Virus record (IMG/VR): IMGVR_UViG_2531839666_000014 | DNA length: 64,000 nt | Reading direction: 5' to 3' (one strand) | Origin: a virus | Lineage: Duplodnaviria > Heunggongvirae > Uroviricota > Caudoviricetes | Shown here: piece after piece, positions 51,001-57,000 of the stretch | Numbering within the stretch: the stretch's first letter is position 1 | How the letters are laid out: every line of letters starts with the position of its first letter | Program-made: the position numbers

Positions 51001-54000
51001 CGGAGGCAATGATCTACTCAGTTATCAGCAAAGCGTATAACCGAAAAACAAAGGAGAGATGGAAGTTGCAGGTGGAGGCTGCATTAAGAAAAGGGAAAGA
51101 ACCACCAGCCTATATACCTAAATCGGTGAGCACGCAAACAAAAGCAACACACCTGGCAATGATCAAGGCTATTCTGCGCGCCGCAGAGCGAGACTGGAAA
51201 TGGCTTGAAAAAGCACCTGTAATCAAAATACCTGCCGTAAAAAACAAACGCGTGAGATGGCTGGAAAAAGAAGAAGCCAGGAGACTCATTGATGCATGTT
51301 CTGATCCCCTGAAATCTGTAGTTAAATTTGCACTGGCAACTGGCCTGAGGAGATCAAACATTATTAATCTGGAGTGGCAACAAATCGATATGCAGCGACG
51401 TGTTGCCTGGGTAAACCCTGAAGACAGTAAGTCAAACCGCGCTATTGGGGTCGCACTGAATGACACTGCCTGCAAGGTGTTGCGTGATCAAATAGGCAAA
51501 CATCACCGCTGGGTGTTTGTTTATACCACTGCTGCCAGAAGGCCTGACGGGACAATGACACCAAGCATCAGAAAGATGCGCCTGGACTATAACACATCGT
51601 GGTTAACAGCATGTCGTCGGGCAGGAATTGAAAATTTCCGTTTTCATGACCTCCGCCATACCTGGGCCAGTTGGTTAATTCAGTCAGGTGTACCGCTGTC
51701 AGTACTTCAGGAAATGGGCGGCTGGGAGTCTATCGAAATGGTGCGTAGGTACGCACACCTTGCACCTAATCATTTGACAGAGCACGCGAGGAAAATTGAC
51801 GACATATTGGGTGACGATGTCCCAAATTTGTCCCACCCTGAGGTTTTTGAGGATGCAAAGAAAGCATAAGCAATTGAATTAGAATGAGTTAAGCTCACGC
51901 TTTCAAGTGGTGAGCAACAACTTTAAAGATCTTGGCCCGGAAGTCAGTTTCCGCCGTATTTATGAATACGCTGGCGGCGACTGGCAGGAAGATAATGGCG
52001 TCTGGCACCAGAACGTGTTCGCTTATTATCTCTCCATCTCCTGTAACCATTGCGATGACCCCGCATGTACAAAAGTCTGCCCCAGCGGCGCAATGCATAA
52101 GCGTGAAGATGGCTTTGTGGTGGTTGATGAAGATGTTTGTATCGGCTGCCGCTACTGCCACATGGCTTGTCCGTACGGCGCACCACAGTACAATTATAGC
52201 GCGGCGATTTTTTTGATACCGATTTGCATTTCATTTGATACCGCTGAAAAACGCCGATACGCAACTTATTTGATACTAAATCGGCGCTTTTCTTTTGAGT
52301 TTTAGAATGAGTTTTTAAGCGCTCATTCACTCTCTTTCAAACCAGTTTTAACTGTTTGTGGTTTTGGGTAAGGCTGGACTTTGAATAGCTTTGTGTTGAG
52401 GCGTTTTCTGGCCCTCTTGTTCAGAAACCGGATGTAACGAAACTGTCGGAACTTATGCACACTGGCTCTGTCGATATTAGCCCTCAGATGTTCACCTCGT
52501 TGTCCGCCTCGTTTAATGGCACTCCTGCAAATCTCGTGATACCACTCGCCATCAAGTTCATAGAATGTTGATTCATGGCTGCCTACATAATCAAAATTGC
52601 TTGCCTGATACACGACACCAAGACAGCCACAACGCTCATCTGCAAACGACTGAACCCAACTGTACCTGCGGATAAAGCTGCCTGATTAGCTTGAGCGCGT
52701 AACTGATTGCCCTTGATTCGGAGTTTCTCGGCATACAGTCATGCATCCATAGCCGGTTAAGCTCCATATATTCTCGGTTCTGCGTACCCGTTACGACGCG
52801 TGCACCACTGTTTGGGTTAAGGGCGTAACCCCATTGCATTACGCCAACAAGTTCCCGTTCTGAAAATATACCCAGATGAAGGTAGGAATTATTTACGAAA
52901 CGGTGGCTGTAATGTTTATTGACGATAACCAGTCTGGCCAGCCAGCAACTTATTGTCTCAACCCGCAACTCACGGGAGCCATAACCAACGATATTGTCGT
53001 TATAGCGAATAAGTTCAGGCGTGCTGATGATACGGGATGTGACTTGCTTTCTGTTCCCCACGACAGGATTTCCTTGTGTATGTGGGGTGCTCTGTGGCGC
53101 TCGGAGATGTGATTTGATTGAGGGTTTTACAGCGCGGACATTTTACTTCCAGATAACTGAAACTGGCCCGTGCCAGTAGCTTATTGCAGTGTCGGCACCG
53201 TATGTTTCGATACATGGCCGCATAACCTCCTGCTTTGTTGTTGATGCCTTTCTCATGCAATCGATCGACAAAAACGATCGATTCGATTTGTTTAATTGAT
53301 ACAACAAATAGATTTAAAAGTCATCAACAATGATTCAGGGCGGTGATTATTTACTTAAAGAAACGAAGAGTTAGGTGGTGAAAACGATCATAAAATGATC
53401 ATTTTATTGACTTTTTATACAGTGAAGGTAGGATCGCGCGTATATGTAGTATAGTTTCAAATCAACAGGATACTACATAAAAGGGAAACCCAGCATAGCT
53501 GGAACTATGCTGGGTCAATCTGTAAAAACTTGCATCAATGCTTTACTTCGAGCTCGTGGCGTATCCTATGATATTCCCCGGTCTCCTGTAAAGCAGAGAT
53601 GCATAAAAAGGAGATCTTTATCATGGATAAAGAGCCTGTTTGCCCTGCCTGTAAGACTCCCTTACAGCTCATCTATCGCCGTTCTCGATCTCAAAATGGC
53701 AAGACATACAAACCAAAAAATGCTTCCTGTTTCAGGATGCTGATATGTCCGGCCTGTTCTCCCCGGAGGGAAAATACACAAAACGTGCATTACAAATTCA
53801 CCCGGCAGGGAAACCTGCCGGTCGGTATTGTTACATCATAGTACCGTCAGTTCCGGGTTGAACCGGCTCTGGTTGCTCTACGGGTTGAGGCTCATTTTCC
53901 GTGCTGTTTTCAGCCGGAGAACGACCAACCATTCGGGCCAGCACTTCATCAACATATGCGTCGATTTGTGCCTCAAAATCCTTGCGAACCTGCGCCTTCA

Positions 54001-57000
54001 GCACGCGGTTCACTTCTTCAGAATAAAGTGCCTGTTTGACAAGCTCTTCAGTAACCGTGCCTTTAATCTCTGGCATGAATATTCTCCTTTCCTTTTCTGG
54101 TTCACAAAAAATTAAATCTGACCGGAGTCTTTCGGCTGCGGCATTACAGCACCGCTTTTTATCTTTTCCTCGGCAGCTGCATCAATTTTATTTCGAAAAT
54201 AATTGCGAATAATTTTATAACCACCGCTGACAAGCAACAGACAACAAACCACCGTGCAGAAATACAGCAGGCAGACGTTTATATATGTCATATAAGCCTC
54301 ACTCTTATTAACTGATGTTACAGCCGGATAAATTCCCGGCCGTCACGATTATGCCGCAGGGGTATTAACCTCAAGGACAACGCTCTCAAAAGCACGCCAT
54401 AAGTTGCCCCTTTGGTGACATCTGTCAGTGTCAGCGTATCTTTGGCAGGGGAAAGTGCATCTTTCACCATCTGGAATGCCTGGCCCGGAGTGCCATCCAG
54501 CACAGGCGTTACCTGGGCACTTCCCGCCGTAAACTTCAGGACAAGTGTATGCCACTGGTTATTGTAGGCTCCAAATGATCCCAGTTTCGTATTCCCCCCT
54601 GTTTTATGGTGCATCAGATTTAACTGGCCGCCTGTTGTCTGGAGATAATACGCCATCAGGAACGGTGTGCCTGTACCACTCATGGTTACACCTTCCGGGA
54701 CCGTATCGGTGTGGAGGTAAATACCCAGAGCAAACTGGCCTTCTTTTACTTCACCTGACAGACGGAATTTACAGGTCAACTGACCACCATGCTTCAGAAG
54801 TTCACCGGCTGCATCAGTTCCATGGGTAAGCGTCCAGGTTTTTCCGCTTTGTTTGGATACGGTCAACGCTTTACCTTCGTCCGTCAGCTGGATTGTACCA
54901 TCTGTAATTTTCCAGCCCTGAGCCGGGGCTTCTCCTGCTGATGCTTTAAGTGAAAGCAGCGTACGGAGTGACGGGGAGTGTCGGATGGGGGGACTCACTG
55001 CTCCTGGCTGACTACCTGTCGGCGCTTCCGGTTTCCCACCCGGCGCGGGCTGAGGCAGGGCTTCACCATCAGGGGCCACACCGGCAATAAATGCAGAGGT
55101 CAGACCTGCATATTTAAGAATTGCTGATGCAAAACGATCTGAGACCAGAAAACGGCGCGCCCAGGAGCTAAAATGGGTTGCCCTGGATGCTGTTGTCCAG
55201 TTGCCATCTCCCCGTGATTCCGCACCATAATACCCGGCAGAAGCGATATCCGGGTCGTGCTCCGGCAGGTTGGTCGCGGTTTTATTACCGAACTCATCGT
55301 GCATCAGTGGAACAAAGTGAATGTTCTCGGAAGCCCGGTTTTTATATCCGCTATAAATGGTTTCATATGCCGCCGGGTTCTTCTCTTTCCAGTCATAGGT
55401 TGTGTCACCACATAACCACGGCACACTGTCTGATGAACCACCAATACACTGACCGGAGAAAGCACCAAGATCCGCACGGAATTTTTTCACCATCGCAGTA
55501 AACTGGGCACCATGCTGGGCCGGGGTCGCCTTAAGGTCTCCTTCCCCCTGAATCCATACGACAGATAACAGCACATTCTTTGGATTCGCCTCAAGTGCCG
55601 CTTTAGTTCGACTGACAAGATCCTGATACAGTGGGGTATCCACTCCCCAGCGTAGTGACGCCTCGGCTGCACCACTTGCCGGATCGAATGAGCCAACTGC
55701 GCCGGTTGTAAAAGCAGAGCCGCCACGGGCACAGGGAACCAGTAAAATCCCGGCATCAGCAGGAATCACCGGTAATACTTTTTTCGCAATATGAAGTCCC
55801 TGCCCCACACAACCATACTGCCCTTTTTTCAGGTCTGCTTTTGGATGGTTCAGCAGACTCATATTCTGAACATCATGAAGGCAGTGATCTGCTGGAATGA
55901 TTTCATTGTATTTGCAGGGAATACCTCCGGGGGTTTGTGTATTCCTGCGTGCCAGCTGCATAATACGTGGATCAGGACGATCATAAGAATCCGGAAGGGG
56001 CAACCCTTCACCATAAGATGAAGCATTGGACTGGCCGGCTATAACAATCACGTAATACCAGGAAGGGGAGCTGGAAGCAGTTTCATTTCCTGCCGGACGG
56101 GTATGTGTTTCTGCATTATCCCAGTCTGACGGTTCAGTAGTACCGGCAACATCAGCACTTAACGGAATGACAGCACCAATACCCGCTCCGGTAATTTCCA
56201 CGTTCGGATCACCGGATACTGGCCTTACCCACAGGCAATCCTGTGTATTAAAACTGATGAGACAGTCAGCAAATGTCATTCCTCCTTTCGTTTCAGCAGG
56301 AGGAAAGGGAGCCTCAAGAAATGCCGCTGTACCACCGGAAACTTTAACGGTAAAGTTTCCGGGCATTGATGATAGTTGAACCCATTTGGACGTCATAATA
56401 TTCATCCTGTTCCTGAATAAACAGAATTATCATATCCACAGACCGATAAACGCCATTTTGCGTTAATTCAGTAAAGGCCCAACAAAGGGAGCGTCTTATT
56501 TTTCCGAAACGCTCGCAGGATAATAACGATAAAGGGTTGAAAGGCCGATATCAAAAATAAGTGCCACCTGTCTTCGACTGACACCCCCGGCCAGTAAACG
56601 CCCGACCTGCTCGTATTGTTCCTGCGTGAGACGACGGGGTCTGCCGCCGGTTCGTCCCCTTTCACGGGCAGCTGCAAGACCAGCCCGTGTCCGTTCGACA
56701 ATTAATTCACGCTCCATTTCTGCCAGCGCACCCATTATGTGAAAAAAGAAGCGCCCCATGGGGGTTGACGTATCAATGTTGTCAGTAAGACTACGAAAAT
56801 TTATCCCCTGTTGCTGTAATTCATCTGTCAGCGCAACAAGGTGGCGCATACTGCGCCCCAGCCTGTCCAGTTTCCAGACCATCAGCGTGTCACCGGGTTT
56901 TAGTTTCTTCAGTGCCCGCTTCAGTCCCGGCCGCTGCGTTGTTTTTCCGCTCATTTTATCTTCAAAAAATCTGCTCACATCCTGCACATTCCAGCGCATT

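Follow-up and report, generated by a model that had tools for sequence, protein, structure and literature searches.

A sugar-esterase module between gin and com-mom appears to be a fixed feature of Sp18-type Mu-like prophages

In Mu, the DNA invertase gene gin directly precedes com-mom (gin stop at 35673, com start at 35768), and the gin-com gap of Mu, D108 and SfMu amounts to 82-94 bp and holds no esterase. In the Mu-like prophage of a Shiga-toxin E. coli described here, by contrast, 3,280 bp (53216-56495) separate the gin stop from the com start, which raises the question of what this additional DNA is and whether it was inserted into this particular element or belongs to the backbone of its lineage. 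The prophage lies in a window of 64,000 nucleotides (IMG/VR record IMGVR_UViG_2531839666_000014), the whole stretch of DNA that was analysed. The initial annotation, which described the Mu arrangement correctly, had placed about 3 kb of cargo at 53263-56405; these limits are essentially right, all of the ORFs are present and their families hold. The interval contains a 695-aa esterase of the NanS-p family, a DUF1378 protein, a DUF826 protein and an opposite-strand zinc-ribbon ORF, and it is embedded in the following Mu-like parts.

52195-52322, minus strand: Mu-like prophage right end (attR side); the match to the annotated Mu-like insert end in LC727881 begins exactly at 52195
52323-53061, minus strand: mom (Mom family), as two ORFs, each half matched by Pfam Mom
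53015-53215, minus strand: com, zinc-ribbon translational activator of mom (Pfam Zn_ribbon_Com, 3e-12; annotated as Com in relatives)
56496-57056, minus strand: gin-type DNA invertase (Pfam Resolvase, 1e-42, and HTH_7)
57119-58562, unstranded: invertible G-like segment, whose bounding inverted repeats match the Mu G-segment ends

The prophage shares with Mu, D108 and SfMu the G-like segment with its Mu-matching repeats (Mu G boundaries matched at 57119-57165 and 58518-58594), the gene order and a transposon-type end after mom, whereas the G segment measures 3.06 kb in Mu and ~1.4 kb here. Both gin and mom are 71% identical to their Mu counterparts at the nucleotide level, and the intact mom ortholog encodes a protein 79% identical to Mu Mom. 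A dmsB/ynfG-like host coding sequence ends at 52194, and among relatives the Mu-like right end is found at differing chromosomal sites. In the window, mom is split by a 1-nt insertion at 52658, gin is frameshifted at 56964, where a homopolymer run is one base too long (the gin of relatives is intact), and the 3' end of the esterase gene is also frameshifted. These indels are missing from a 99.8% identical relative, from which the window differs by 10 single-base indels and 8 substitutions over 7.8 kb; three indels relative to prophage L002 fall in the catalytic/C-terminal region of the esterase. Since indels outnumber substitutions, the ten are probably assembly errors rather than signs of decay; if they were real, this copy of the module would be inactive. 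The three co-oriented genes of the interval and the DNA that separates them from gin are laid out as follows.

53831-54076, minus strand: DUF826 protein, module gene 3 (81 aa; Pfam 3e-15; phrog_311)
54112-54291, minus strand: DUF1378 protein, module gene 2 (59 aa; Pfam 9e-24; phrog_494), with a hydrophobic N-terminal segment
54318-56405, minus strand: whole esterase (695 aa; Pfam SASA 2e-13, DUF6645 8e-26)
54318-56060, minus strand: catalytic (SASA/NanS-like) and C-terminal DUF6645 domains of the esterase (Pfam and PDB matches)
56061-56405, minus strand: N-terminal domain of the esterase, ~110 aa, in place of the lambdoid DUF1737 (no Pfam match; AlphaFold beta domain)
56406-56495, minus strand: gin-esterase intergenic DNA, terminator-like structure absent (folding z = -1.5)

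The same layout is found in prophage Sp18 of E. coli O157:H7 Sakai, where ECs_4992-4998 encode the invertase, a 679-aa esterase, DUF1378, DUF826, an opposite-strand ORF, com and mom, with ECs_4993-4996 matching the gin-com interval. Sp18 is of the same phage type and gene order (tail genes 99.3% identical, DUF826 to the right end 98.6%), but its catalytic and C-terminal esterase domains and its DUF1378 belong to another allele. The Sakai annotation lists the four genes only as hypothetical proteins, and the literature library searched contained no paper that names them or discusses a gin-com module, in keeping with the earlier statement that this is not a classically described cargo site. The Sp18-type lineage was sequenced in 2001, and the module is not known to have been interpreted since.

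The module is present in all Sp18-type prophages examined (Sakai Sp18, L001-L004, L006, L007, L032 and L034-L037). In L032 and L034-L037, the esterase-DUF1378-DUF826 trio lies between Mu-type tail genes and com, which is followed by mom or a methylase, and these five loci carry four distinct esterase alleles, 47-63% identical to that of the window; L033 has the same order from tail to trio, its contig stopping before com. Two relatives lack gin but retain the trio, the esterase standing directly after the tail-fibre genes. A synthetic empty-site query detected adjacent gin and com in 0 of the 233 complete E. coli genomes in which this gin or com occurs. Outside the lineage, the gin-com gap is ~190-280 bp in Mom-carrying prophages of Edwardsiella and Pantoea, and in 21 loci of other species gin is beside com and no esterase, DUF1378 or DUF826 gene lies closer than 10 kb to mom. 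Since the outgroups have a short gap and no esterase, the module is an addition relative to the Mu plan and, because esterase alleles differ by up to ~50% in sequence, an old one. Thus, the initial annotation was right in seeing some 3.2 kb more than in Mu, but the idea of a moron insertion peculiar to this element does not hold: within the Sp18-type lineage these genes are ancestral backbone, and sequence comparison indicates a fixed feature of the whole lineage rather than a fresh insertion.

Outside this lineage, sugar-esterase modules of this three-gene kind are characteristic of lambda-like Stx phages, and the window itself contains such a copy in its Stx1a prophage, so that the term esterase paralog in the initial annotation is correct.

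26238-28768, minus strand: Stx1a-prophage module downstream of stx1AB, comprising a DUF1737-SASA-DUF6645 NanS-p, DUF1378, DUF826 and then holin
26858-28768, minus strand: Stx1a-prophage esterase (DUF1737-SASA-DUF6645)

In 933W, in phi24B (gp84) and in this Stx1a prophage, an esterase with SASA/NanS-like and lectin-like DUF6645 domains precedes DUF1378 and DUF826, arranged and oriented as in the Mu-like copy, and homology to the latter starts at the linker just past the N-terminal domain. The lambdoid esterases carry DUF1737 and the Mu-like one an unrelated N-terminal domain; moreover, the lambdoid module lies between stx/Q and holin instead of gin and com-mom, and the carrier of the Mu-like copy is a transposable, myovirus-type phage, not a lambdoid one. 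The two copies in the window share 51% protein identity in the esterase from residue 106 on, 48% in DUF1378 (26536-26718) and 42% in DUF826 (26238-26492), and ~67% nucleotide identity over 1 kb. By these values they are old paralogs and, since they are only 42-67% identical, the acquisition seems ancient. The search for a close donor allele was negative: the DUF1737-type sequences nearest to the window esterase are ~61% identical to it over the region they have in common, so that the direction and number of transfers can only be inferred.

Residues 108-432 of the esterase align with E. coli chromosomal NanS (YjhS; PDB 3PT5, E = 4e-110), which lacks both the phage-type N-terminal domain and DUF6645, the catalytic alignment alone covering its 337-residue PDB chain; the C-terminal domain matches that of NanS-p (6YP6, E = 2e-40). 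DUF1737 is absent from the Mu-like esterase according to Pfam, and AlphaFold predicts a beta domain in its place (pLDDT 82-87 for residues 11-70), for which fold searches returned generic matches only. This domain has 5 representatives in 1.84 billion proteins, namely three esterase N-termini (two continuing into SASA), a 26-aa fragment and an unrelated repeat protein that matches weakly. All of its genomic contexts examined (11/11) are Mu-like prophages, whereas DUF1737-type alleles were found only in lambdoid late regions. Relative to Sakai Sp18, nucleotide identity is 94-100% in gin and the N-terminal domain, only 27-75% in the catalytic and C-terminal domains and DUF1378, and 98-99% from DUF826 through mom, a profile that points to exchange of a cassette at ~54100-56000 with its breakpoint at the domain linker. 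Tailspikes of P22, Sf6 and HK620 likewise combine a conserved N-terminal particle-binding domain with exchangeable distal domains. As in such modular tailspikes and tail fibres, the enzymatic part is replaced and the N-terminal part stays with the backbone; unlike glycosidase or lyase tailspikes, however, the enzyme belongs to the SGNH/SASA esterases.

Gene content among the Sp18-type relatives compared varies only in the ~500-bp slot between DUF826 and com, which contains the following features.

53216-53460, unstranded: com-upstream control region (alignment A1; GATC count)
53407-53434, plus strand: promoter candidate of sigma-70 type, TTGACT-16-TAGGAT, directed towards the zinc-ribbon ORF (consensus scan)
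53487-53516, minus strand: intrinsic-terminator-like hairpin separating the module from the com-mom control region, with a 13-bp stem and then UUUCCCUUUUAU
53623-53841, plus strand: zinc-ribbon ORF (CPAC...CPAC) of 72 aa, counted from the ATG at 53623, with AAGGAG as its ribosome-binding site
53800-53822, unstranded: GC-rich hairpin where the DUF826 and zinc-ribbon ORFs converge (conserved in alignment A1)

The opposite-strand protein of 72 aa with two CPAC motifs that had been described is real as an ORF but owes its length to a 1-nt deletion at 53791; in relatives it measures 56 aa from the same ATG or 64 aa from an upstream one. No family scored above threshold in Pfam, PHROG, NCBIfam or PADLOC, and its only homologs are near-identical E. 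coli matches, which suggests an orphan restricted to this lineage. Its promoter candidate is a weak call, as the region-wide count of such sites is not above chance. Next to com, 53216-53310 is conserved in all sublineages of alignment A1, and 53216-53460 contains five GATC sites (53263, 53276, 53386, 53397 and 53432, two of them within a palindrome) against 0.7 expected. This is the probable promoter region of the mom operon; since its nucleotide sequence does not significantly resemble the Mu mom promoter, the junctions relative to Mu cannot be placed at the nucleotide level.

We consider it likely, with a probability of about 0.7, that the gin-com interval is a lineage-fixed accessory module of Sp18-type Mu-like phages of E. 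coli and Shigella, derived from lambdoid phages, exchanged as a cassette and NanS-p-like in its role. An ancestor of the clade would have acquired the trio between gin and com through non-homologous recombination with the late region of a lambdoid phage, and the DUF1737 of the esterase would later have given way to another small beta domain. As one cassette with DUF1378, the catalytic and C-terminal domains would then have been swapped repeatedly, with the linker after the N-terminal domain as breakpoint, while the slot beside com takes up varying small ORFs, here the zinc-ribbon ORF. Lambdoid NanS-p has been shown to remove O-acetyl groups from the sialic acids of gut mucus glycans. By homology, the Mu-type esterase would likewise act as a sialate O-acetylesterase on these glycans, on lytic growth or lysis.

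A possible but clearly less probable explanation is that the esterase is a component of the Mu-like virion, anchored to head or tail by its N-terminal beta domain, in which case the targets of the enzyme would be glycans in the surroundings of the phage or at the host surface. The model is phi24B, whose NanS-p gp84 is reported in a preprint as a capsid decoration protein bound via DUF1737, precisely the domain replaced here. The confinement of the replacement domain to Mu-like prophages and of DUF1737 to lambdoid late regions would fit such an anchor, as would the tailspike-like pattern in which the N-terminal domain, like the backbone, remains close to Sp18 (94-99% identical) while distal domains are swapped. 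Moreover, the esterase gene runs in the late-gene direction, comes immediately after the tail-fibre genes in the gin-less relatives and lies within the same hypervariable island as the variable parts of the tail fibres. Nevertheless, the N-terminal domain resembles no other Sp18 protein and does not strictly track the backbone, being only 60% identical in the L006 lineage although the tail genes there are 97% identical.

That the prophage is defective and this region decaying into junk, with the zinc-ribbon ORF as a chance frame, seems improbable. The window does carry frameshifts in mom, gin, the esterase and around the zinc-ribbon ORF, relatives differ in the reading frames ahead of the zinc-ribbon core and the ORF has only near-identical homologs; however, the genes are intact in 99.8% identical relatives, the ratio of indels to substitutions fits assembly error better, esterase alleles diverged to ~50% identity are full length and keep many invariant residues, including the GQSN motif, and the ribosome-binding site of the ORF is strong. 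A recent, element-specific moron insertion, for instance from the neighbouring Stx1a prophage, is far less credible still. A paralogous module does lie 25 kb away in the same window, and Mu-like prophages of this type often occur in or beside lambdoid ones, but this reading is refuted by the divergence of the copies, the empty-site count and the Sakai Sp18 layout.

For the lineage-fixed module preferred here, the word moron is only partly apt. The trio has the orientation of the late genes, neither a terminator scan nor folding revealed a terminator in the gin-esterase gap, and the trio has no assignable promoter, weak consensus matches upstream being no more frequent than in shuffled sequence. 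Transcription would probably proceed in the late-gene direction, with gin or the tail operon as the source of read-through, and the two hairpins of the slot, one of them a good intrinsic terminator, could shield the tightly regulated com-mom from it. The hairpin at 53487-53516 folds at -22.1 kcal/mol (z = -4.7; 0 of 200 shuffles as stable), and that at 53800-53822, a candidate bidirectional terminator by its predicted structure, folds at -20.5 and -20.0 kcal/mol on its two strands.

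The interval between the invertase gene gin and com in the Mu-like prophage of the window is best viewed as a NanS-p-type esterase module that is fixed in its lineage, recombines, and has had its N-terminal domain replaced, together with a small variable slot. This arrangement is that of the clade of Sp18, the Mu-like prophage of E. coli O157:H7 Sakai; it has been public since the Sakai genome (2001) and, apparently, has never been interpreted. The window, whose source is an E. coli that produces Shiga toxin (STEC), contains two prophages. Most of it is a Stx1a lambdoid prophage, and the Mu-like prophage extends on the minus strand from 52194/52195 to the window end, its left end lying outside the window. 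The Mu-like right end, placed by homology to the annotated boundary of the Mu-like insert in LC727881, breaks a dmsB/ynfG-like gene at 52194/52195, about 300 bp past the Stx1a integrase. The two prophages therefore stand back to back, with the Mu-like insertion in the dmsB/ynfG-like gene directly flanking the integrase. In the direction of the phage, baseplate genes are followed by tail-fibre genes with an invertible segment, gin, the esterase, DUF1378, DUF826, a zinc-ribbon ORF, com, and mom.

Features of the two prophages (Mu-like genes on the minus strand unless stated)
29548-29817, stx1B, Stx1a lambdoid prophage
29828-30784, stx1A, Stx1a lambdoid prophage
50707-51869, integrase of the Stx1a prophage
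52323-53061, mom
53015-53215, com
53623-53841, zinc-ribbon ORF, opposite strand
53831-54076, DUF826 protein
54112-54291, DUF1378 protein
54318-56405, esterase, 695 aa
56496-57056, gin-type invertase
57119-58562, invertible segment, repeats matching the Mu G-segment ends

The initial annotation described about 3 kb of cargo at this position, and its account of the content is borne out: the feature is real, the family assignments of the interval genes are significant (Pfam), and 3,280 bp separate the gin stop from the com start, whereas the gap of Mu is 94 bp and that of D108 and SfMu 82 bp. The same annotation called the cargo a moron insertion, which holds only in part. Relative to the outgroups, the Mu plan is indeed expanded: Mu, D108, and SfMu have no counterpart of the module, and neither have 21 loci of other taxa, representing 18 further species or MAGs, which were retrieved with a Mom query using one genome per bacterial species. 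No homolog of the esterase, DUF1378, DUF826, or the zinc-ribbon protein was found within 10 kb of mom in any of these 21 loci, and outgroup gin homologs, where present (Edwardsiella, an Enterobacteriaceae MAG, and Pantoea), lie 100-300 bp from com or mom. Inside the Sp18-type clade, however, the module is present in every member examined and comparison with relatives shows it to be ancestral backbone rather than an insertion. Sakai Sp18 has the same order, with the genes from the esterase to the opposite-strand ORF annotated as hypothetical proteins (ECs_4993-ECs_4996), and so does every other relative inspected, namely two more STEC sublineages, a non-STEC sublineage (gin 69% identical), a remnant inside a lambdoid prophage, and a Mu-like phage inserted in Stx phages. 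The esterase, DUF1378, and DUF826 genes form a contiguous, co-oriented trio of unchanged order in the window and eleven relatives. Distinct esterase alleles, 47-63% identical to that of the window, also sit between Mu-type baseplate/tail-fibre genes and com, and one further locus has the same order on a contig that ends before com. Moreover, a synthetic empty-site query, in which the com side was fused without a gap to the 3' end of gin, matched none of 233 complete E. coli genomes as an empty site, the two halves always aligning to two separate places. Within the clade, the module is older and more constant than gin itself. Base composition varies along the interval (GC 0.38-0.56, versus 0.55-0.59 in the tail genes), with gin, the G segment, and mom equally low.

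The remaining features of the Sp18 type are also present, including Mu-type tail and baseplate genes, the invertible segment with gin, and right-end com-mom. The same right end is found at unrelated sites, as in transposition rather than site-specific integration; it abuts dmsB/ynfG in the window, sorM in Sakai, and, in other relatives, ldrA/kdsA, genes of a lambdoid prophage, a ydcF-like gene, and elf fimbrial genes. Sakai Sp18 itself has been predicted to be intact (PMC2669165). The invertible segment spans about 1.4 kb in the window, whereas it measures 3.06 kb in Mu (31966-35025); this shorter segment offsets part of the 3.2-kb module, and the genome lengths of 38.76 kb (Sp18) and 36.72 kb (Mu) are relevant to a headful-packaging phage. 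In two of the compared loci (L032, 6151-9208; L036, 5979-9064), no gin was called and the esterase comes directly after the tail-fibre assembly gene. The remnant inside a lambdoid prophage (L003, E. coli 600029, 4305-12066) is an Sp18-type right end from the esterase to mom, flanked by a truncated tail-tip gene and by an IS1 adjoining a truncated ydfR and the holin gene, and its history was likely a Mu-like insertion followed by an IS1-mediated deletion. In phage D108, a gene labelled as D108-specific (L030, 2198-2644; D108 36697-37143) lies between mom and the right end, a further small accessory slot of the right end of Mu.

Comparison with Sakai Sp18 reveals that the interval is a mosaic.

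Identity of window segments to Sakai Sp18
52195-54090, from DUF826 to the right end, 98.6%
54100-56000, esterase catalytic and C-terminal domains plus DUF1378, 27-75%
~56050-57150, gin plus esterase N-terminal domain, 94-100%
57613-64000, tail genes, 99.3%

The breakpoint in identity coincides with the domain linker of the esterase, indicating exchange of a cassette of esterase, lectin, and DUF1378, with the N-terminal domain left on the backbone. In comparison with the 23CRST049 lineage, the divergent island broadens to 53311-58400, despite identities of 97% for the tail genes and 95% for com-mom. The three domains of the esterase vary independently among 13 alleles.

The catalytic domain of this esterase is of the SGNH/SASA type and homologous to NanS (PF03629, 2e-13; PDB 3PT5, E = 4e-110, residues 108-432), with a GQSN motif that is invariant in the 13 alleles, and it is followed by a C-terminal lectin-like or jelly-roll DUF6645 domain (PF20350, 8e-26; PDB 6YP6, a NanS-p, E = 2e-40); in the window, the last ~18 codons are frameshifted. 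Homology to the lambdoid NanS-p of Stx phages starts at residue ~106, in an SSP-containing linker, and the first ~110 residues stand in place of DUF1737. The Mu-type esterase has no match to PF08410 (DUF1737), whereas the lambdoid copy in the window scores 4e-18, and the two N-termini are 16-20% identical. Their locations differ as well, lambdoid NanS-p being encoded in the late region, after Q or stx and before the holin gene, and the Mu-type esterase between gin and com-mom. In the sample examined, all prophages with the new N-terminal domain are Mu-like and all those with DUF1737 are lambdoid. When 1.84 billion representatives were searched exhaustively with HMMER, the N-terminal domain gave five matches, consisting of three such esterase N-termini, one 26-aa fragment, and one weak match to a repeat protein; one of the five (P0007) is 28% identical. 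In tblastn against the whole of Sp18, the domain matched only itself. AlphaFold predicts a small beta domain (pLDDT 82-87 for residues 11-70), whose fold matches are only generic, of the cupin or jelly-roll type; among viral models, Foldseek found only small uncharacterised proteins, with E of at least 0.003.

As a putative prophage sialate O-acetylesterase of the NanS-p family, the Mu-type enzyme may de-O-acetylate Neu5,9Ac2 or mucin glycans. NanS-p esterases have been discussed as STEC fitness factors by which lysogens feed on O-acetylated mucus sialic acids, and their enumeration and typing have been limited to lambdoid Stx phages (PMC10462455). The alleles of Mu-like prophages form a further, unrecognised class with a different N-terminal domain, which affects inventories of NanS-p alleles; they were found in ~230 of the 5,426 complete genomes of E. 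coli, among them that of the reference strain Sakai.

As for the origin of the trio, each of its genes has a counterpart, with order and orientation preserved, in the unit located between stx and holin in lambdoid Stx phages, where DUF826 and DUF1378 genes have been reported between nanS-p and S (PMC10462455). The Stx1a prophage of the window has its own copy of this unit (26238-28768). The two copies are old paralogs: nucleotide identity between them is only ~67% over 1 kb, and the proteins are 51% (esterase), 48% (DUF1378), and 42% (DUF826) identical, which excludes a recent copy from the neighbouring prophage. A recent lambdoid donor of the cassette of the window was not found either, the best DUF1737-type alleles being ~61% identical. 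An apparent donor match of 93-99% was discarded, as it consisted of truncated Mu-type proteins that had been misclassified and one unconfirmed C-terminal match. The simplest reading is that an ancestor took up the trio from the late region of a lambdoid phage through non-homologous recombination, with both direction and mechanism inferred. Sp18-type Mu-like prophages are frequently located inside or beside lambdoid prophages (the window and three relative loci). The module is a clear example of sharing between transposable and lambdoid phages and, otherwise, ordinary phage mosaicism.

One reading that would raise the interest of the finding, and that is directly testable, is that of a particle-bound enzyme with a new anchor domain. 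The NanS-p of phi24B (gp84) has been reported to decorate the capsid via DUF1737 (2026 preprint), and the split of N-terminal domains by phage type would fit a phage-type-specific anchor, although in itself it is no evidence of particle association. A DUF1737-type esterase relative of 752 aa (P0112) bears a phage tail collar domain (PF07484), another hint that such esterases can be joined to virion-associated domains. It is conceivable, though rather improbable, that the Mu-type esterase is bound to the particle as a structural enzyme in a transposable phage with a contractile tail, that its rare N-terminal beta domain is a new virion-attachment module functionally replacing the capsid-binding DUF1737 of lambdoid NanS-p, and that the gin-com interval is a host-glycan-interaction locus, with a conserved anchor and an exchangeable esterase/lectin cassette, evolving together with the tail-fibre variable region. 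If so, the same enzyme would have been paired with a different anchor in each of the two phage types, and sialic-acid esterases would be particle equipment common to unrelated phage types instead of lysogenic-conversion cargo. The report of DUF1737 as a capsid anchor, together with the Mu-type alleles, provides a concrete test of particle membership.

The copy in the window differs from a 99.8% identical relative (FHI_NMBU_11) over 7.8 kb by 8 substitutions and 10 single-base indels, located between 52195 and 60000 (at 52658, 53453, 53791, 54392, 54978, 55000, 56964, 58017, 59646, and 59701), which frameshift mom, gin, the esterase (with three indels), the tail-fibre assembly gene, and baseplate J. 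This ratio of indels to substitutions points to assembly error, and the pattern looks like long-read assembly error rather than decay; if the indels were real, the prophage copy of the window would be defective, the reading of the locus being unchanged. The Stx1a integrase is split into two ORFs (50707-50985 and 51009-51869), of which another indel is a possible cause.

Downstream of the conserved trio, a slot of about 500 bp separates DUF826 from a conserved block of 95 bp upstream of com (window 53311-53800; L003, 7305-7565; L007, another compared locus, 7892-8092; L036, 9700-9900), and its content differs by sublineage. It contains the zinc-ribbon ORF in the window and Sp18, an unrelated 86-aa opposite-strand ORF in two relatives, and a 66-aa same-strand ORF in four others, none of these ORFs reaching a family threshold in PADLOC, NCBIfam, PHROG, or Pfam. 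The zinc-ribbon ORF, whose length of 72 aa here results from a 1-nt deletion, has a good ribosome-binding site and a candidate promoter, exists only as near-identical E. coli copies, and is alone in the interval in pairing a candidate promoter with a hairpin. On the phage coding strand, a strong terminator-like hairpin is located downstream of the trio (53487-53516; -22 kcal/mol, z = -4.7) and a second hairpin after DUF826; between gin and the esterase, neither a terminator nor a convincing promoter was found. We infer late-direction reading of the trio, with com-mom insulated from it; in Mu, the com-mom product is harmful and tightly controlled (PMC3299994). The late-activator dyad TTAT-N6-ATAA had one match elsewhere in the window, at chance level, and inspection of the sequences upstream of the late genes of Sp18, whose late activator is ECs_4961, revealed no shared motif, so no late promoter was assigned to the esterase. 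An Rfam scan of 52100-57300 yielded only chance-level matches and, hence, no known RNA element in the interval.

The 245 bp upstream of com (53216-53460) contain five GATC sites versus 0.7 expected, one pair within the palindrome AATCGATCGACAAAAACGATCGATT immediately upstream of com and another pair beside the -35 of the candidate plus-strand promoter. This cluster suggests Dam-dependent control of com-mom, the zinc-ribbon ORF, or both, and recalls the Dam control of the Mu mom promoter, although no sequence similarity to that promoter is detectable. Local alignment of this region with the Mu gin-com intergenic region scored 22, within the range of shuffled sequences (mean 17.8, maximum 28); consequently, a resemblance noticed by eye to ATCAATTAA...GATCGATT was discarded and the junctions cannot be placed to the nucleotide. 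In three of the compared loci (L001, 6160-7212; L034, 10474-11526; L035, 10473-11525), a C5 cytosine DNA methyltransferase (PF00145) takes the place of mom, still overlapping and following com. Thus, in some Sp18-type prophages, a different DNA-modification enzyme is placed under the Com control unit.
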